A stretch of 32,000 nucleotides of DNA from an uncultured Alphaproteobacteria bacterium (lineage in GTDB: Bacteria > Pseudomonadota > Alphaproteobacteria > Rs-D84 > CACZYB01): the NCBI GenBank assembly GCA_934246625.1, contig CAKQHZ010000002.1, positions 185,112 through 217,111 of the forward strand. Reading direction: 5' to 3'. This document shows, in pieces, positions 21,247 through 28,833 of the stretch. The notes beneath the pieces were generated by a model. That model ran no database searches, was not told where the DNA came from, and saw nothing but the letters and a program-made list of their open reading frames with translations. Both the position numbers and the translations under genes were made by a program. Within the stretch, counting starts at the first letter, position 1; the number at the start of each line of letters is the position of its first letter.

Positions 21247-22110
21247 CTATTTTATAAAATGATTTATTATTTTTTTAACCTTTGTTTCAGAATCTCCAAG
21301 AATATCAAATTTTGGAGCATATTCCACAAATTCCGCACATATCATTTTTGGGGTATTTAGCATTGGTAAAATTTCATTTATAAAATCAAATCTTATGCCG
21401 TTTTTCTCTGGAACTTGGACGGCTGTAAAATCGGTTGTTGAAAGAACATCAAAATCAAATGAAATTATGTATTTTTTTCCATTTAATTTTTGTAGGACGG
21501 TTTTTACAGTGTCCTTTAGGTAATCAATGTTGTTGACCAAAGAGTTATCGGTTGTAAAAATGTTTTCAGATTTTACAAATTGAAGTTCAGATGGTTCGTA
21601 TGAACGAGCACCAATGAAAAAAAGGTTTTCCTTTTTTAGTGGGATTTCGTTTGTGCCAAGTGATAAATATCTTTCATCACCATATCCAAGAAGATGGCGG
21701 ACATTTGTCCCATGGGGTGAGCCTGAGGCTTCTTTTTTTGAAGATTCAGGGGTATGTATATCAAAGTGTGCATCAATATAAATAAGCCCTATGTCTTCGT
21801 TTGGGTAAAATTGTTTTACTGCTTTGAAGTGGGCAAAGTTTACGCTGTGATCTCCACCAACGAAAATGTGATTTTCAATTTCATCTTTTGATAAATTTGA
21901 TATGTGGTTGTAAATGATTTTTTGAATTTCAAAATTTTCAGAAAATCTGTCAGCCTTTAATTTTTCAATATCAAATTCCCATGTTGGAGACAACATTTCC
22001 CATTTGTGATTTTTATATATTGTTTGAATTTTAAGAGGAGCTTTTTCACATCCATCTATGATAGGATTTTTTTGTGCTCCTCTTCCATAATTTACACCAA
22101 TGAAAAGCAT
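21247..22110 (-). CDS. arginase-family metallohydrolase (arginase/agmatinase/formiminoglutamase-like)
   Basis: 287 aa. Ureohydrolase metal motifs VGGDHSV, YIDAHFDIHTPE..SGSPHG and ISFDFDVL. Substrate not assignable by eye. Confidence 0.75.
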   Translation of the reverse strand: MLFIGVNYGRGAQKNPIIDGCEKAPLKIQTIYKNHKWEMLSPTWEFDIEKLKADRFSENFEIQKIIYNHISNLSKDEIENHIFVGGDHSVNFAHFKAVKQFYPNEDIGLIYIDAHFDIHTPESSKKEASGSPHGTNVRHLLGYGDERYLSLGTNEIPLKKENLFFIGARSYEPSELQFVKSENIFTTDNSLVNNIDYLKDTVKTVLQKLNGKKYIISFDFDVLSTTDFTAVQVPEKNGIRFDFINEILPMLNTPKMICAEFVEYAPKFDILGDSETKVKKIINHFIK

Positions 22111-22111
22111 C

Positions 22112-23050
22112 TTACTTTTCCGTTGAAATTAGGTATGTTGTTGCTTCCATAGCGGATTGTGCACCAGATGCGGCTGCAATTACAACTTGTTTAAAACGAG
22201 GGTTTTTAACATCACCTGCGGCAAAAACTCCATCAATATCAGTTGCACAAAGGTCTGGTTTTGTGATTATGTAGCCAGCGTTATCAAGTGGAACTTTTCC
22301 TTTGAAAATTTCAGTTTGAGGAACATTTCCAACAGCAATGAATAAACCGCTTGTTTCATAAGTTGTTCTTTCCTTTGTATCAACATTTTCAACAGTGATG
22401 CTTGAAAGTTTTCCCTCTGTTTCGGTTGCTTCTACAACAACGGAATTCCAAATTGTTGAAACGTTTGGAGTGTTGAAAAAATGTGTTTGATTTATGTGTT
22501 CTGCAGTAAAGTGGTCGCGACGATGAATTACAGTTACCTTTTTGCAAATTGTTGAAAGATGTAATGCTTCGTATATTGCAGAATTTCCACCACCAACGAC
22601 AAATACTTCTTTATCCCTAAAGAAAAAACCATCGCAAGTTGCACAGTATGAAATGCCGTGGCCAGTTAATTTTTCTTCGTTTGGAAGTCCAAGTTTTCTG
22701 TAGGTTGAACCTGTTGCAATGATGACTGCATCAGCGGTGATTTCATTATCATTTTCGCATTTTATTGTAAAAGGACGTTTTGAAAAATCAACTTCAACAA
22801 CTGTGTCAGCAAGAATTTCGGCACCAAAAATTTCGGCTTGTTTTCTCATTTGCTCGGTTATGTAAATACCATCAATTTTTTCTGTGAAACCAGGATAGTT
22901 TTCAAGGGCAAATGTTTTTGTGATTTGACCACCAAATTCCATACCTGTGATTATAAGAGGGTGATTTCCATTTCGACCAGCATATATTCCAGCAGAATAT
23001 CCAGCAGGACCAGAACCAATAATTACGACTTCTCTATGTTGTTGTTTCAT
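22112..23050 (-). CDS. trxB: thioredoxin-disulfide reductase
   Basis: 312 aa. FAD motif VVIIGSGPAGYSAGIYAGR, redox-active CATCDG, NADPH motif VVGGGNSAIYEA, C-terminal FAAGDV. Confidence 0.93.
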   Translation of the reverse strand: MKQQHREVVIIGSGPAGYSAGIYAGRNGNHPLIITGMEFGGQITKTFALENYPGFTEKIDGIYITEQMRKQAEIFGAEILADTVVEVDFSKRPFTIKCENDNEITADAVIIATGSTYRKLGLPNEEKLTGHGISYCATCDGFFFRDKEVFVVGGGNSAIYEALHLSTICKKVTVIHRRDHFTAEHINQTHFFNTPNVSTIWNSVVVEATETEGKLSSITVENVDTKERTTYETSGLFIAVGNVPQTEIFKGKVPLDNAGYIITKPDLCATDIDGVFAAGDVKNPRFKQVVIAAASGAQSAMEATTYLISTEK

Positions 23051-23111
23051 TTATATCTCCTTTTTATGTATTTTTTGAGATTATAGATTAGTGGCATTTT
23101 TTTTTCAAGGG

Positions 23112-23837
23112 TTAATATCTTAGTTCAAGTTCTTTTACTATAGATTTTAATTTTTCTATGAAGTCCTTGTCGGTGAAAAATTGCATTATCATTTGTTGTG
23201 ATGGATTTGCTGGGTTGTCCTTTTCAACTGGGCGGTATCTTTGCACGGCATATTTTTTTACCCCAAGTTTTGTTATGGTTTCGGCAATTTCAAGTATGTC
23301 TGATTTTGTTAAAACTGTTGGGTCGGCGGTTGTGCGGACTTCTAAATCTTTGTTTTGTGATAAAAGGTATGTAAGACTTTCGAATGCTTGCTCTCCACTT
23401 CCTTTTACCTTTGTGATTTCATAATATTTTTCACATGGTGCTTTTATATCAAAGCCAATCCAGTCAATGTATGGAGAAAGTTTTTTAAGATTTTCAGGAA
23501 AACAACCGTTTGTATGAAGACCGATTTTAAAATGTGGTGCGAATCTGTGAATATCTTCGATTGCGGTAATTATTTCATCTGCTTGGGCAGAGGCTTCTCC
23601 ACCGCTGAAGACTACGGCGTCTAAAATTTTTGTTCTTTTTCTTAAAACATTTAAAATATATTCCCAGTTTTCCTTATCTTGTTCGGTTGGGCGGTGAAAT
23701 TCAAAAAGGTGTGGATTGGAGCAGTAAATACATCTCCAGGGACAACCTTGTAAAAAAATAACTGATGAAATTTTTTTTGGATAATCGATTGTTGTAAATG
23801 GGACGAATCCTCCGACTATGATATTTGAATTTGCCAT
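23112..23837 (-). CDS. nrdG: anaerobic ribonucleoside-triphosphate reductase activating protein (radical SAM, NrdG2-type)
   Basis: 241 aa. N-terminus IVGGFVPFTTIDYPKKISSVIFLQGCPWRCIYCSNPHL carries a CxxxCxxC cluster. AAAGGAGG RBS. Adjacent to nrdD. Confidence 0.85.
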   Translation of the reverse strand: MANSNIIVGGFVPFTTIDYPKKISSVIFLQGCPWRCIYCSNPHLFEFHRPTEQDKENWEYILNVLRKRTKILDAVVFSGGEASAQADEIITAIEDIHRFAPHFKIGLHTNGCFPENLKKLSPYIDWIGFDIKAPCEKYYEITKVKGSGEQAFESLTYLLSQNKDLEVRTTADPTVLTKSDILEIAETITKLGVKKYAVQRYRPVEKDNPANPSQQMIMQFFTDKDFIEKLKSIVKELELRY

Positions 23838-23863
23838 AAAGCCTCCTTTAAAATTATAAAATA

Positions 23864-23892
23864 TATTATATTTGTTTTGTTGGATATAGTCA
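23864..23892 (-). promoter_or_regulatory. near-consensus sigma70 promoter of nrdG
   Basis: Minus strand reads TTGACT (23892-23887), 17-nt spacer, TATAAT (23869-23864), upstream of the AAAGGAGG RBS and the nrdG ATG at 23837. Confidence 0.6.
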
Positions 23893-23900
23893 AGAAAAGC

Positions 23901-23932
23901 ATAAAATAAAACCTCTCGAAAATGAGAGGTTT
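23901..23932 (-). terminator. rho-independent terminator after the small nrdD-fragment ORF
   Basis: Perfect 9-bp stem AAACCTCTC (23909-17)/GAGAGGTTT (23924-32) with a 6-nt loop. On the minus strand it is followed by TATTTTAT. It sits 20 nt after the stop at 23953. Confidence 0.7.
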
Positions 23933-23952
23933 TTAATCAATAAATTTTGTTG

Positions 23953-24153
23953 TTATGCAATCTTTTTATCATAAACACAATTGCAATTCATTGAGGATAA
24001 TGTAGCAGATTCTGTGAAATATTTTCTTTCATAAAATTCTGATTTTTTACCTTTGTTAAAATTAGCAACTGGACGGCAATATCCCATAGCACGAGTCCAA
24101 ATTTCACATTTAGTTCTTTTGCTGTTATCTAATTTTTTTTCAAATGTTTCCAT
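23953..24153 (-). CDS. stand-alone glycyl-radical domain of class III ribonucleotide reductase (NrdD C-terminal fragment)
   Basis: 66 aa. CEIWTRAMGYCRPVANFNKGKKSEFYERKYF aligns by eye with the NrdD glycyl-radical loop (E. coli RRVCGYLGSPDARPFNAGKQEEVKRR). Its own AAGGAGG (24165-24159) lies 5 nt upstream of the ATG. Confidence 0.8.
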   Translation of the reverse strand: METFEKKLDNSKRTKCEIWTRAMGYCRPVANFNKGKKSEFYERKYFTESATLSSMNCNCVYDKKIA

Positions 24154-24219
24154 TATATCCTCCTTATGTTTTGTTAATATTATTATATTCCTTTTTTCTT
24201 ATGTTATCAATATCAAAAT

Positions 24220-26349
24220 TTAATGGTTTGTTTTTTCTTTTGATATGATTTCTTCATCACAGATTGGACAGTATTCGTGTTCACCTGCGATATATCCGTG
24301 TTTAGGGCATATTGAAAATGTTGGTGTTATTGTTATGTATGGAACATGATAATTTTCAAATACCTTTTTTATAATTTGTTTTGCAACTTCGGTGTTGGAA
24401 ATTCTTTCTGCCATATAAAGGTGAAGAACTGTGCCACCAGTATATTTTGTTTGAAGCGCATCTTGAATATCCAATACTTCGAATGGGTCATCTGTATATC
24501 CTACAGGAACTTGAGATGAATTTGTGTAGTATGGAGCATCTTTTTTTCCAGCTTGGATAATATCAGGGAAAATTTTTGCATCTTCCTTTGCAAATCTGTA
24601 AGTTGTTCCTTCTGCTGGAGTTGCTTCTAGGTTATAAAGGTTGCCTGTTTCTTCTTGGAATTCAACCATTTTTGCACGAATGTGATCCAAAAAGTCAGAT
24701 GCCATTTTTTGACCACGAGCATCTGTGATGTCGTATTCGTCGTTTGTAAAGTTTCTTATCATTTCATTGATACCATTTACACCAATTGTTGCAAAGTGGT
24801 TGCGAAGTGTGCCAAGGTATCTTTTTGTAAATGGATAAAGTCCACCATCGATAAGTTTTTGAATTGTTTTTCTTTTGATTTCCAAACTTGTTTTTGCAAG
24901 TTCCATAAGAGAATCTAATTTATAATATAGTGCTTCTATATTACCCTTATATTTATAACCAAGTCTTGCACAGTTGATTGTTACAACACCAATAGAACCT
25001 GTTTGTTCAGCAGAGCCAAATAATCCGTTTCCACGTTTTAAAAGTTCACGAACATCAAGGCGAAGACGACAACACATTGAACGAACATCTGTTGGTTTTA
25101 AATCAGAATTCATAAAGTTTTGGAAATATGGAAGACCGTATTTTGCAGTCATTTCGAATAATAGGTCTGCATTTTCACCTTCCCAAATAAAGTCATTTGT
25201 GATGTTGTATGTTGGAATAGGAAATGTAAATGGACGTCCCTTTGCATCACCAGAAGTCATAACTTCAATATATGCTTTGTTTATCATATCCATTTCTTTT
25301 TGAAGGTCGCCATAGGTAAATTCTTCTATTTCCTTTCCACCGATTTTTGGGTGTTGTGGGGCTAAATCCTTTGGACATACCCAATCGAATGTAAAGTTTG
25401 TAAATGGAGTTTGGGTTCCCCAACGGCTTGGAACATTAAGATTGTATATAAGTTCTTGCATTTTTTGTTTTACATCTTTGTATGTCATATTATCAAGACG
25501 AACAAATGGTGCAAGGTATGTATCGACTGATGAAAATGCTTGTGCACCAGCCCATTCATTTTGAAGAGTTCCCATAAAGTTAACCATTTGACCAACTGCA
25601 GATGATAAGTGTTTTGGTGCAATAGATTCAACGTGTCCTGGAACACCATTGAAACCTTCTTCTAATAATGCACGAAGGGACCAACCTGCACAATATCCAG
25701 ATAACATACTTAAATCATGTATGTGAAAGTCGCCATTTCTGTGTGCATCACCAATTTCCTTTGGATATATATATGAAAGCCAGTAGTTTGCAACAACTTT
25801 ACCAGAGATATTTAAAATCATACCACCAAGAGAATAGCCTTGGTTTGCATTTTCATTTACACGCCAATCAAGTTGATTAAGGTATTCAGAGATTGATTTT
25901 TCAACATCAATTTTGATTTTTTCAGAATCACGGCTTTGTGCACGTTTTTCACGATATAAGATGTATGCTTTGGCGGTTTCATAAAAATTTGCATCAATAA
26001 GAACTTGTTCAATTATGTCTTGGACTTTTTCAATGAAAACGGCTTGGGTTCCATCATATTTGTGATTTAATACTTTGATTACATTATTTGTTAATTTTAT
26101 AATTTGTTCAGGAGAGAAGGGAGTTGTTGCTTCGCCAGCAAGTTTTATGGCATTTTCGATTTTTTCAATATTAAAATCAACAACTTCCCCATTTCTTTTT
26201 ACAATTTGTTTGATATTTAATTTTTCAATAGGTGTTAGATTTATGATTTTTTCGTTTTGTTGGTCAGTAGTTTTACACACTTTAGTCTCTCCTTTTTGAT
26301 TCGTAAAAATATCATAAATTATTGATTTTTTACTATTTGTTTTTCCCAT
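24220..26349 (-). CDS. nrdD: anaerobic ribonucleoside-triphosphate reductase, large polypeptide lacking the glycyl-radical loop
   Basis: 709 aa. ATP-cone (IVKRNGEVVDFNIEKIENAIKLA), class III core (e.g. NLEATPAEGTTYRFAK, CCRLRLD) and a C-terminal metal ribbon CPKHGYIAGEHEYCPIC. It stops 13 residues later, before any RxxGY motif. Confidence 0.9.
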   Translation of the reverse strand: MGKTNSKKSIIYDIFTNQKGETKVCKTTDQQNEKIINLTPIEKLNIKQIVKRNGEVVDFNIEKIENAIKLAGEATTPFSPEQIIKLTNNVIKVLNHKYDGTQAVFIEKVQDIIEQVLIDANFYETAKAYILYREKRAQSRDSEKIKIDVEKSISEYLNQLDWRVNENANQGYSLGGMILNISGKVVANYWLSYIYPKEIGDAHRNGDFHIHDLSMLSGYCAGWSLRALLEEGFNGVPGHVESIAPKHLSSAVGQMVNFMGTLQNEWAGAQAFSSVDTYLAPFVRLDNMTYKDVKQKMQELIYNLNVPSRWGTQTPFTNFTFDWVCPKDLAPQHPKIGGKEIEEFTYGDLQKEMDMINKAYIEVMTSGDAKGRPFTFPIPTYNITNDFIWEGENADLLFEMTAKYGLPYFQNFMNSDLKPTDVRSMCCRLRLDVRELLKRGNGLFGSAEQTGSIGVVTINCARLGYKYKGNIEALYYKLDSLMELAKTSLEIKRKTIQKLIDGGLYPFTKRYLGTLRNHFATIGVNGINEMIRNFTNDEYDITDARGQKMASDFLDHIRAKMVEFQEETGNLYNLEATPAEGTTYRFAKEDAKIFPDIIQAGKKDAPYYTNSSQVPVGYTDDPFEVLDIQDALQTKYTGGTVLHLYMAERISNTEVAKQIIKKVFENYHVPYITITPTFSICPKHGYIAGEHEYCPICDEEIISKEKTNH

Positions 26350-26360
26350 TTTCTCTTTAA

Positions 26361-26407
26361 TTACAAGATATAGTATTTTTTTTAATGTTGCAAACTATAT
26401 TTTGTGT
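26361..26407. promoter_or_regulatory. tandem candidate NrdR boxes upstream of nrdD
   Basis: AAACTATATTTTGTGT (26392-26407) matches the remembered NrdR consensus acaCwAtATaTwGtgt at 14/16 positions. TTACAAGATATAGTAT (26361-26376; reverse complement ATACTATATCTTGTAA) matches at 12/16. Centre-to-centre distance is 31 bp, about three helical turns, as is typical for NrdR box pairs. Confidence 0.5.
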
Positions 26408-26461
26408 TTTTTGTTAAAAAATTTTCTTGACGGTTAAAAATGTAGAAAAATCTTGAATTTA

Positions 26462-26470
26462 TGGTATAAT
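26462..26470 (+). promoter_or_regulatory. extended -10 promoter element of the 26508 gene
   Basis: TGgTATAAT (TG 26462-63, TATAAT 26465-70), 37 nt upstream of the ATG, which has an AGAGGAG RBS. Confidence 0.5.
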
Positions 26471-26507
26471 GATTTTGTAAAGTTATAAAAAAGAGGAGAA
26501 AACTGCG

Positions 26508-27353
26508 ATGAATTGGCTTTATTCTATCATGGGGTTTGTATGTTTTTTAAGTGTTTTTTGGGGTGTTTGGAGTAGCAAATATTTCCTTTCTAGCCCTAAT
26601 TTCCAAGGAGTCGGTGGAATCCTTCCTCAAGATATGGCTTATATGATTTTTGCTGTGATTATTCCTATTATTTTATTGTTGTTTGTTGGGATATTTTTAT
26701 TTGTGGCGATTTCGAATCATACAAATAAAAATGTTTTGGTAAGTTTGCTTAATGGTAATAAATCACAAATGTCATCACTTCAAATCCTTTGTAAGTCATT
26801 GATAGAAGTAAGAAAACTTGGTTTTACGAATCAATTTTTTCTTAATTTGCCGATTGTTTTGAATGATATTAGTGTTTCTCTTGCTGGAATCATTTCAAAA
26901 ACGGGAATGGCTTCTGATATTGTGATTTTTGATGCTCTTAATAAAGAGGGGGATAATAGGCTTTATTCAATTTGTAAAATTATTTTGGATTTAAGGGAAA
27001 GCACTCCTCATTTTGATGAAAATTTACGTCGTAAGGTTAAAAAAGACGCTGTGATTGCTGGAAATATTGGAATTTTTTCTTCTAAATACAATAAATTATT
27101 AAAAGTCCTTAAAAATTATGATTTAGATGGCTTTATTTATTCTTTGATAGAAGAAGGTGAGCTTGGTAAAGTGCATAATATTCTTTCATCAGCAATTTAT
27201 TCATCTGAAATTCCTGTAAAATCAATGGAAATAGAAGAAAATATGGATAGTGTTTTTGAAGAGGTTGAGGAAAAGGAAGAAACAAGAGCAAAAGCAAATA
27301 AAATCAATCTTGAAGAGATTATGAAATTTGTTGATGAGGAAAGTGAAGAATAA
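26508..27353 (+). CDS. hypothetical two-TM membrane protein with an acidic C-terminal tail
   Basis: 281 aa with a strong RBS. Two N-terminal TM helices (SIMGFVCFLSVFWGVW; MIFAVIIPIILLLFVGIFLFVAI), a helical soluble domain of about 170 aa, and a Glu-rich tail (EEVEEKEE...DEESEE). No family recognised. Confidence 0.6.
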   Translation: MNWLYSIMGFVCFLSVFWGVWSSKYFLSSPNFQGVGGILPQDMAYMIFAVIIPIILLLFVGIFLFVAISNHTNKNVLVSLLNGNKSQMSSLQILCKSLIEVRKLGFTNQFFLNLPIVLNDISVSLAGIISKTGMASDIVIFDALNKEGDNRLYSICKIILDLRESTPHFDENLRRKVKKDAVIAGNIGIFSSKYNKLLKVLKNYDLDGFIYSLIEEGELGKVHNILSSAIYSSEIPVKSMEIEENMDSVFEEVEEKEETRAKANKINLEEIMKFVDEESEE

Positions 27354-27408
27354 ATTCTTTGTTTTTTAAACTTGCAACTACTTTATTTATATAGTAGCTT
27401 TCTTTATT

Positions 27409-28833
27409 ATGGAAAAACAAAATTTAAAAAATATTATTGATAAAGGTTTGGCTGAGTATAAGGCTGGATTTGACCCAAAAATTAAATCCGATGTGATTGA
27501 TAATATGGGATTGTCTGAAGATGTTATTAGGTATATAAGTAAAAAAAATAACGAATCAGATGTGGTTTTGAATTTCAGGCTTAAGGCTTATCATAAATGG
27601 AAGGAAATGATTGAACCTCATTGGGCATTGTTTGATTATGACCCTATCAATTATAATGATGTCTACTATTTTTCTCGTCCAAAGGTAGAAGATAAAGAAG
27701 TCGATGATAAGATTAAAAAAACTTATGATAAGTTAGGAATTCCTCTTTCTGAACAAAAAATGTTATTGGGACAGGCTGTTGATGCAGTTGTTGATAGTGT
27801 TTCAGTGAAAACAACTTATCGTGAGCAGTTGTCAGAGCTTGGCATTATATTTTGTTCTATAAGTGAGGCATTAAAAAATCATTTTGATTTGGTGTGGAAA
27901 TATTTTGCCTCTGTTGTGCCGATGGAAGATAATTTCTTTTCTGCTTTGAATTGTGCAGTGTTTAGTGATGGCACATTTGTTTATATTCCAAAAGGTGTAA
28001 AGTGTCCGATTGAACTTTCCAGTTATTTCAGACTTCAAACTGAAAAGTTGGGGCAATTTGAACGAACTTTGATTATTGCAGATGAAGGTAGTGAGCTTTC
28101 TTATTTGGAGGGGTGTTCGGCTCCTATTCGTGATAGTAATCAACTTCATAGTGGTGTTGTGGAATTGGTTGCACTTCGTGGGGCAAAGATAAAGTATTCG
28201 ACTGTGCAAAATTGGTATGCTGGTGATAAAAATGGAAATGGTGGTGTGTATAATTTTGTAACGAAGCGTGGTATGGCTTTTGATGATGCGGTTATTTCAT
28301 GGACTCAGCTGGAAGTTGGTGCTGTGAAAACTTGGAAATATCCATCTTGTATTTTAAAGGGTGATAGAAGTAAGGGCGAATTTTTTTCTGTGGCTATTAC
28401 AAATAATTATCAAATGGCGGATACTGGCACAAAAATGATTCATCTTGGTAAAAATACTTCAAGCACCATTTTATCAAAGGGAATTTCTTTGGGACATTCA
28501 AAAAATGGTTATAGAGGTATGGTAAAGATTGCAAAGGGTGCATTGGATTCAAAAAATTACACAAAGTGTGATAACCTTATTATTGGTGATACTGCTTATT
28601 CTTTGGCATTACCAGAAATTACAAACTCAAATATGTCTTCACAAGTAGAGCATGAGGCTTCGGTTTCTTCGATTAGTGATGAACAATTATTCTTTTTACA
28701 ATCTCGTGGGTTGACAGAGGAGCAGGCAACGGGTCTTATTGTGAATGGTTTTTGTGGTGATATTATTAAACATCTTCCTGCGGAATTTGCAATGGAAGCA
28801 AAGGAACTTATCAATATAAGTATAGAGGGTTAA
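27409..28833 (+). CDS. sufB: Fe-S cluster assembly scaffold protein SufB
   Basis: 474 aa. Typical SufB blocks (FERTLIIADEGSELSYLEGCSAP, KYSTVQNWY, HLGKNTSSTILSKGIS, EHEASVSSISDEQLFFLQSRGL). Confidence 0.95.
   Translation: MEKQNLKNIIDKGLAEYKAGFDPKIKSDVIDNMGLSEDVIRYISKKNNESDVVLNFRLKAYHKWKEMIEPHWALFDYDPINYNDVYYFSRPKVEDKEVDDKIKKTYDKLGIPLSEQKMLLGQAVDAVVDSVSVKTTYREQLSELGIIFCSISEALKNHFDLVWKYFASVVPMEDNFFSALNCAVFSDGTFVYIPKGVKCPIELSSYFRLQTEKLGQFERTLIIADEGSELSYLEGCSAPIRDSNQLHSGVVELVALRGAKIKYSTVQNWYAGDKNGNGGVYNFVTKRGMAFDDAVISWTQLEVGAVKTWKYPSCILKGDRSKGEFFSVAITNNYQMADTGTKMIHLGKNTSSTILSKGISLGHSKNGYRGMVKIAKGALDSKNYTKCDNLIIGDTAYSLALPEITNSNMSSQVEHEASVSSISDEQLFFLQSRGLTEEQATGLIVNGFCGDIIKHLPAEFAMEAKELINISIEG

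Follow-up and report, generated by a model that had tools for sequence, protein, structure and literature searches.

A functional class III (anaerobic, glycyl-radical) ribonucleotide reductase composed of two separately translated polypeptides is very probably encoded by the nrdD locus of an uncultured alphaproteobacterium, as judged from the sequence of a 32-kb stretch of its genome (contig CAKQHZ010000002.1; GC content of 32%), hereafter called the window. The locus lies on the minus strand. The large subunit (24220..26349) has a length of 709 aa when counted from the first ATG, while close relatives have 680-694 aa and the family model starts at residue 46; it comprises an ATP-cone, a catalytic barrel, and a zinc ribbon, and is devoid of the glycyl-radical loop. 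The loop is located on a 66-aa open reading frame (ORF; 23953..24153), separated from nrdD by a spacer of 66 nt (24154..24219). Both ORFs are in the same frame, and a second in-frame TAA is found six codons after the nrdD stop. The ATG of the small ORF (24153) is preceded at a distance of 5 nt by the Shine-Dalgarno sequence AAGGAGG (24159..24165), and an intrinsic terminator hairpin with a 10-bp stem and a T-run (23908..23933, minus strand) is positioned directly 3' of the small ORF. These features of the large and small ORFs, including the two stop codons, the Shine-Dalgarno sequence, and the strong terminator, had been described in the initial annotation of the locus and were borne out by the sequence and, for both ORFs, by profile matches; alignment of both ORFs to NrdD models confirmed the proposed breakpoint and placed it cleanly. 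The further claim of that annotation, a genuine two-piece enzyme instead of a frameshift or pseudogene, is strongly supported by comparative evidence, namely the recurrence of the predicted split, the occurrence of the small gene in all three frames, at variable spacing, and in both gene orders, the dN/dS values, the truncated ends of 120 out of 120 close relatives, and the presence of the split in cultured carriers.

The large ORF was assigned to class III by all models used. It matched NF006126 at positions 2-657 of 684 (1117 bits, cut-off 548), Pfam NRDD (PF13597) at positions 1-531 of 562 (602 bits), and TIGR02487 (497 bits, cut-off 326), whereas the class II reductase models matched it at the ATP-cone only and far below their cut-offs. 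The ATP-cone occupies residues 48-137 (25939..26208; PF03477, E = 4e-22). Residue-level alignment with NrdD of Prevotella copri located the finger-loop motif MCCR at residues 425-428 (25066..25077), the second Cys of which aligns with the thiyl-radical Cys in MGCR of the P. copri enzyme; the partner Cys on strand beta-A was located in GYCAGW (residues 218-223). The C-terminal metal ribbon CPKH-x9-CPIC (residues 681-697; 24259..24309) was recognized from the sequence and from alignment with fused relatives. It is kept in split and fused relatives alike, has a predicted metal-binding role, and is the last conserved element of the large subunit, which ends with ...CPICDEEIISKEKTNH-TAA, also rendered ...CPKHGYIAGEHEYCPICDEEIISKEKTNH-TAA. 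The alignment to P. copri NrdD (8p23) extends to chain residue 709, two residues before the radical Gly711. The R-x-x-G-Y loop is thus not on the large polypeptide, which stops at position 657 of 684 of NF006126; it is on the second one. The cognate activase gene nrdG is found alongside (23112..23837, minus strand) and encodes a radical-SAM protein of the NrdG2 type with 241 aa (TIGR02495, 173 bits, cut-off 131).

The small ORF (METFEKKLDNSKRTKCEIWTRAMGYCRPVANFNKGKKSEFYERKYF..., with the glycyl-radical region ...KCEIWTRAMGYCRPVANFNKGKKSEFYERKYF...) matched positions 649-682 of NF006126 and positions 530-562 of the 562 positions of Pfam NRDD, the latter with 29.3 bits, just over the gathering score of 26.2. 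The radical glycine is predicted to be Gly24 in the motif WTRAMGY (codon 24082..24084). No dedicated model for the small subunit was found in NCBIfam, where the small ORF reached at most 28 bits against models with cut-offs of at least 326 bits. The Pfam scan of the small ORF gave no Gly_radical (PF01228) match at E ≤ 0.1 and, besides NRDD, only a sub-threshold match to Lipoprotein_10 (E 0.064). A profile search of solved structures with the small family gave no match at E ≤ 1.

A search of 5.8 billion proteins yielded 70 clusters of small-ORF homologues, all free-standing, 54-99 aa in length, and 57-98% identical. In a profile search of 1.84 billion representatives at 50% identity, 4400 matches at E ≤ 1e-3 and 1117 at E ≤ 1e-10 were obtained, and the best 150 of them were all 51-152 aa long. 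Sixteen positions are invariant in the small-subunit alignment (M1, R13, C16, W19, T20, R21, M23, G24, Y25, R27, P28, N33, G35, K36, E39, and R43); they have their centre in RxxCExWTRxMGYxRP...NxGK, and the protein is variable at both ends. The ratio of nonsynonymous to synonymous substitution rates (dN/dS) of the small ORF against close relatives was 0.12-0.25, and the ORF is under purifying selection. Given these values and the large free-standing family, the small ORF is not an artefact or a pseudogene. Among the invariant residues, Cys16 in KCEIW (codon 24106-24108) is present throughout a 27-sequence alignment of small subunits; in a gut clade it is moved by two residues (PVECW), and Thr replaces it in several fused relatives and in one orphan copy from a phage (L140). 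Cys16 could tether the small subunit, perhaps at the metal site.

The same split was sought in related genomes. One genome per GTDB species was scanned with the small-protein alignment, which gave 80 loci; together with other look-ups, the 3' end of nrdD was visible in 82 loci. Of these, 76 were split and 6 fused, a ratio that overstates the frequency of the split among all NrdD because the loci were retrieved by similarity to the small ORF. The split is widespread and not peculiar to the genome of the window. The start codon of the small gene is ATG in 74 of the 76 split loci, and a Shine-Dalgarno-like motif was detected in 55 of them. In the 71 loci with the large gene first, the small gene is, counted from the frame of the large gene, in frame 0 in 20 cases, +1 in 24, and +2 in 27, with the gap ranging from an 11-nt overlap to 650 nt (median 42 nt). 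Five loci have the small gene upstream of the large one, including L027 (a metagenome-assembled genome (MAG) labelled Rickettsiales), L038, and L051 (Peregrinibacteria). Where inspected, the order of large gene, small gene, and nrdG recurred in divergent genomes.

These data bear on whether a one-piece NrdD could still be translated from the two ORFs through stop-codon readthrough, frameshifting, or ribosome hopping. The common frame in the window would permit this, and in four high-GC loci (L055, L060, L065, and L067) one in-frame TGA alone separates the ORFs, so that some readthrough is possible there. In the window, however, two TAA codons are followed by a consensus Shine-Dalgarno sequence and an ATG, and no conserved recoding signal or Rfam element is present in the spacer. 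Three frames, variable gaps, and five upstream small genes exclude readthrough, a fixed frameshift, and hopping as a general mechanism, and recoding of the window ORFs is considered very unlikely. An alternative genetic code with TGA reassignment was rejected, as the Gracilibacteria loci stay split when TGA is read as sense (code 25).

The closest relatives of the large subunit (70-93% identity) end shortly past the CPxC ribbon without a glycine motif in 120 of 120 cases, and some of these truncated sequences are present on hundreds of contigs. An assembly or sequencing error, or a decaying pseudogene copy, is exceedingly improbable as the source of the split: a point error would yield a short in-frame ORF after a premature stop, but assemblies made independently show this architecture too, as do over 130 complete Ralstonia replicons; the nearest relatives of the large subunit stop at the same point, purifying selection acts on the small ORF, and the large ORF has intact catalytic motifs and a score at twice the family cut-off.

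Two local peculiarities were observed among the split loci. In four Acidobacteria MAGs (L033, L037, L041, and L052), the tail of the large subunit (...EKEEKERILKQIKEIEEKLNKLEA) and the N-terminus of the small one (MTEREILEKRLEELRYKLETVKGEKCEIW) both look like amphipathic helices, which could form a coiled-coil docking pair. In L014, the ribosome-binding site and start are present a second time in the spacer (AAGGAGGAAAAAAATGAAAC...), approximately 115-190 nt upstream of the small ORF, and an early stop follows; this copy looks like the remnant of a duplicated 5' end of the gene.

The position of the break was examined with fused proteins. Among the relatives of a fused homologue from Riflebacteria, 99 were fused and 21 were without the glycine motif. 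In the fused proteins, the last Cys of the ribbon and the radical Gly are separated by a hypervariable linker of 11-55 residues, and the C-terminus of the large subunit and the N-terminus of the small subunit of the window abut inside this linker when aligned with them. The fused homologue P0273 was modelled with AlphaFold2 (mean predicted local distance difference test (pLDDT) score of 81; predicted template modelling score (pTM) of 0.78; TM-score of 0.6-0.73 to solved class III structures). In this model, the ribbon (CPKC, 660-663) continues as a helix (661-674) and a coil (675-686), after which a beta-hairpin (694-699 and 702-705) carries Gly701 at its tip. The break in the window would map to the coil just past the post-ribbon helix and before the glycine hairpin, that is, to a linker at the protein surface that connects the zinc ribbon with the hairpin. 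On a neighbour-joining tree of the catalytic core, a crude distance tree, the split enzymes are scattered among the fused ones, and parsimony requires at least nine changes of state. This pattern suggests that fission or fusion at the linker took place several times and that either form can functionally replace the other.

Ligation of the two pieces after translation by a split intein was also considered. Inteins and introns often insert into ribonucleotide reductase genes (PMC3653736), and the invariant Cys16 stands near the N-terminus of the small protein. Against this, approximately 12 residues past the zinc ribbon and approximately 15 before Cys16 are too few for intein halves, no intein-like C-terminal His-Asn precedes the Cys, and the same Cys is found at the same place within ordinary sequence in fused relatives; a split intein is extremely unlikely. 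The 66-nt spacer is too short to hold an intron or intein halves.

The uncultured carriers of the split belong to animal-gut Alphaproteobacteria (the group of the window), Acidobacteria, and the candidate phyla radiation (Gracilibacteria, Peregrinibacteria, and Uhrbacteria). The loci nearest to the window come from MAGs labelled 'bacterium' or Alphaproteobacteria, with small proteins 94-95% identical. Cultured carriers found in the GTDB-species scan were several Pleomorphomonas species, Neorhizobium, Aliirhizobium, and Formivibrio; in the plasmid collection, 133 Ralstonia replicons as well as Cupriavidus, Bradyrhizobium, Paracoccus, Cereibacter, Allochromatium, and Acidiphilium were found. The annotation of the small ORF varies, and it is called hypothetical or nrdD or not called at all. 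In Ralstonia solanacearum, NrdD has 683 aa, and the next ORF, which has 58 aa and is annotated as hypothetical, starts with an ATG that overlaps the TGA of nrdD (ATGA) and has GAAGGAG upstream; by its sequence, this layout is a classic translational-coupling arrangement. Pleomorphomonas koreensis DSM 23070 possesses two nrdD loci (L034 and L050), both split and both with nrdG. Plasmid pHG1 of Cupriavidus necator H16 encodes 676 aa, a 142-nt gap, 66 aa, and then nrdG, and the small ORF (E6A55_RS33455; WP_011154154.1) is called nrdD by RefSeq. Vitamin B12 is reported to restore growth when nrdDG is lost. The pHG1 nrdD and nrdG genes are said to be the subject of a paper by Siedow et al. from 1999. 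According to the genome paper of C. metallidurans CH34, H16 requires the nrdDG genes of pHG1 in order to grow anaerobically by denitrification; the nrdDG genes of CH34 itself are listed there as Rmet_5137 and Rmet_5139, with one locus tag skipped between them (PMC2864759). Together with the split layout of pHG1, the growth requirement of H16 provides indirect experimental support that a split-type locus is functional.

Compared with the one-piece NrdD and NrdG of phage T4, Escherichia coli, Thermotoga maritima, P. copri, and Neisseria bacilliformis, the window locus has in common the core, ATP-cone, finger-loop Cys, metal ribbon, glycine hairpin motif, and adjacent activase. It differs in that the hairpin, which all structures and descriptions consulted place at the C-terminus of the same chain, belongs to a separate gene product. 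Small free-standing proteins with a glycyl-radical loop are likewise represented by GrcA/YfiD of E. coli and Y06I of phage T4, so a phage-encoded version exists; proteins of this type can be activated by the activase of the parent enzyme and work by docking into a large partner, and only two spare parts have been validated, both for pyruvate formate-lyase (PMC8683613). GrcA/YfiD (IPR011140) are homologues of the pyruvate formate-lyase C-terminus, whereas the small ORF of the window is a homologue of NrdD without a Gly_radical match. GrcA/YfiD also backs up a parent that has its own glycine, while the adjacent parent in the window, as in the 76 split loci, is without the loop. With such a partner, the small protein would be the primary carrier and not a spare.

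The small protein might nevertheless act as a GrcA-like spare for a one-piece NrdD encoded elsewhere, with the truncated large ORF being inactive or having another role. Autonomous glycyl-radical rescue of an oxygen-cleaved parent is established for pyruvate formate-lyase, the window covers 32 kb of the genome, and the orphan copies in phages described below might serve hosts with one-piece enzymes. On the other side, the truncated large gene is kept at 70-93% identity with intact active-site motifs and is always paired with the small gene, usually with nrdG as well; both loci of P. koreensis are split, and so is the locus on which anaerobic growth of C. necator H16 is reported to depend. A role as a mere spare is therefore regarded as very unlikely, and the two-piece enzyme is preferred.

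Catalytic chains encoded by two consecutive ORFs, with products that have to assemble, are known for NrdJa/NrdJb of Pseudomonas aeruginosa and Thermus phage phiYS40, and for the fragmented NrdA of Aeromonas phage Aeh1 (PMC9669993, PMC3653736). Two adjacent ORFs are likewise present in the window, the products of which are presumed to assemble. NrdJb, however, bears a zinc-finger module, redox cysteines, and an IscU-like domain, not the radical site, and belongs to class II with another cofactor; in the same survey, which dates from 2022 and deals with insertions and extensions of reductases, the glycyl-radical domain of class III is placed at the C-terminus, and split domains are called possibly distinct to class II (PMC9669993). 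The nrdD genes of T4 and related phages are also in two pieces where group I introns or homing endonucleases interrupt the coding sequence (PMC3653736), but there splicing restores one polypeptide or the fragmentation is sporadic, whereas the window spacer is without an intron and each piece has its own translation signals. A 2026 review of glycyl-radical enzymes mentions spare parts for pyruvate formate-lyase only. In the searchable literature, no account was found of a class III enzyme whose glycine carrier has a gene of its own, or of viral copies of such a gene. This agrees with the initial annotation, where no free glycyl-radical polypeptide was known as the sole carrier of a ribonucleotide reductase, and cannot prove absence. 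As RefSeq labels some small ORFs nrdD, curators may be aware of the layout.

In addition to translation signals, the spacer contains a promoter-like site, TTGATA-17-TATAAT (24182..24210, minus strand), predicted by a promoter scan. The -35 and -10 hexamers (TTGAxx-17-TATAAT) recur at the same place of the spacer in several relatives from the clade of the window, and the bases between them diverge. A hairpin with a T-run after the small ORF is present in most of the 12 relatives compared, with differing stem sequences. The recurrence of both signals in diverged sequence makes the small gene look like a transcription unit of its own, besides read-through from nrdD. Another promoter-like site was predicted before nrdG (23865..23893). 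The Rfam scan of 22000-27500 gave nothing credible and no family match in the spacer, which thus holds no intron or riboswitch.

Copies of the small gene were also found in viral genomes. The IMG/VR database was scanned with the small-protein alignment, and of 439 matching stretches, the best 80 contigs (L093-L172) were examined. A free-standing homologue of 50-70 aa with no nrdD or nrdG within up to 10 kb on either side was present in 76 of these 80 contigs, and a separate large gene besides the small one in the other four. Orphan copies also occur in phage-like neighbourhoods of metagenome contigs and MAGs (L004/L040, L006-L010, L035, L036, L039, L058, L061-L064, L072, L077, and L080), next to genes for lysozymes, CHAP/VanY peptidases, reverse transcriptase, and PHROG-family proteins. 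Many of these MAGs were binned as gut Alphaproteobacteria, and the best cellular match of the orphan copies was most often, in 34 of 96 cases, the small subunit of an alphaproteobacterium abundant in the human gut. By analogy with known phage-encoded spare parts, phages may carry the orphan small gene as an auxiliary gene for re-arming the reductase of the host.

The small proteins have a match in PHROG 4132, a phage protein family whose function is listed as unknown. The phrog_4132 profile is 179 positions long with the NrdD-type glycine motif at approximately positions 113-158; judging by this length and placement, some cultured phages may encode longer proteins that end in this module. A search of cultured-phage genomes in GenBank with the small protein gave no close match and only distant matches to full-length phage NrdD, so the phage copies are known only from uncultivated viral contigs. 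In L129/L130 (12865-15255) and L163 (7383-9782), the large nrdD encoded by the phage aligns as two blocks approximately 370-435 nt apart, which suggests an insertion of an intron or homing endonuclease, besides the separate small gene.

In the proposed enzyme, the large subunit would supply the allosteric ATP-cone, the barrel with the catalytic cysteines, and the zinc ribbon, and the 66-aa subunit would supply the beta-hairpin bearing the radical glycine. By means of S-adenosylmethionine, NrdG would remove a hydrogen from Gly24 while the small subunit is either free or only loosely attached. The hairpin would then enter the barrel of the large subunit beside the finger-loop cysteine, like the attached glycyl-radical domain of one-piece enzymes, which is mobile in NrdD (PMC11226230). 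From the Gly24 hairpin, the radical would pass to the finger-loop cysteine. Oxygen destroys glycyl-radical enzymes by cutting the chain at the radical glycine. A weaker proposal is that, with the glycine on a small subunit of its own, such cleavage would oblige the cell to replace 7 kDa and not approximately 80 kDa. Many of the cultured carriers are facultative denitrifiers; these, together with the own promoter-like site and terminator of the small gene, the phages with the small gene only, and the GrcA precedent, fit the idea that the radical carrier is a separately made subunit, which is probably replaceable. More tentatively, and with rather more doubt than confidence, the small subunit is envisaged as an exchangeable cartridge that would be activated by NrdG off the enzyme, inserted, and swapped after cleavage or quenching by oxygen or nitric oxide, with the phage copy acting in infected cells as an auxiliary metabolic gene that re-arms the reductase. 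This would explain the preference for the split in bacteria that switch between oxic and anoxic life, the promoter and terminator of the small gene, and the many phages with only a 60-aa gene.

Several points weigh against the two-piece enzyme and its proposed use. The retrieval of loci by similarity to the small ORF, the crude tree, and the possible readthrough at the four high-GC loci have been mentioned above. The small protein modelled alone gave no confident fold (pLDDT 57), and its shape was left out of the argument. That the small ORF is translated, that its product carries the radical, and that the large and small subunits form a complex are predictions drawn from nucleotide and protein sequences; the reasoning on oxygen repair and the part ascribed to the phage copies are suggested by analogy with GrcA. 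A one-piece nrdD could also be present in the genome beyond the 32 kb in view.

Directly downstream of nrdG, a gene for a thioredoxin-reductase-like flavoprotein was found (22112..23050, minus strand), identified through a syntenic gene of L001 with Pyr_redox_2/Pyr_redox_3. The double cysteine of MCCR and this adjoining gene fit a thioredoxin-dependent class III enzyme like that of N. bacilliformis, and the flavoprotein may be part of the reductant supply, its link to the reductase being a supposition. On the plus strand, a predicted membrane protein of 281 aa without a Pfam match (26508..27353) is encoded between nrdD and sufB-sufC-sufD; a 273-aa counterpart is kept in synteny in L001.

In the descriptions of class III ribonucleotide reductases and glycyl-radical enzymes that were consulted, the radical glycine always belongs to the catalytic chain. 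How the activase reaches the buried glycine loop is a long-standing problem of glycyl-radical enzymes. A free 7-kDa loop protein makes activation in trans and subsequent insertion directly testable, and C. necator H16, R. solanacearum, and Paracoccus denitrificans are tractable carriers of the split. Surveys of the family in which NrdD is scored by the glycine motif would mistake these large subunits for defective ones. The finding would extend the idea of spare parts from pyruvate formate-lyase to the synthesis of DNA precursors and points to a widespread, unrecognized phage gene. If the cartridge proposal is true, the small protein would be the first radical-carrier subunit of a ribonucleotide reductase and its phage copy the first phage spare part for one, and the pair would offer a natural system for watching the activation of a glycyl-radical domain outside the barrel.

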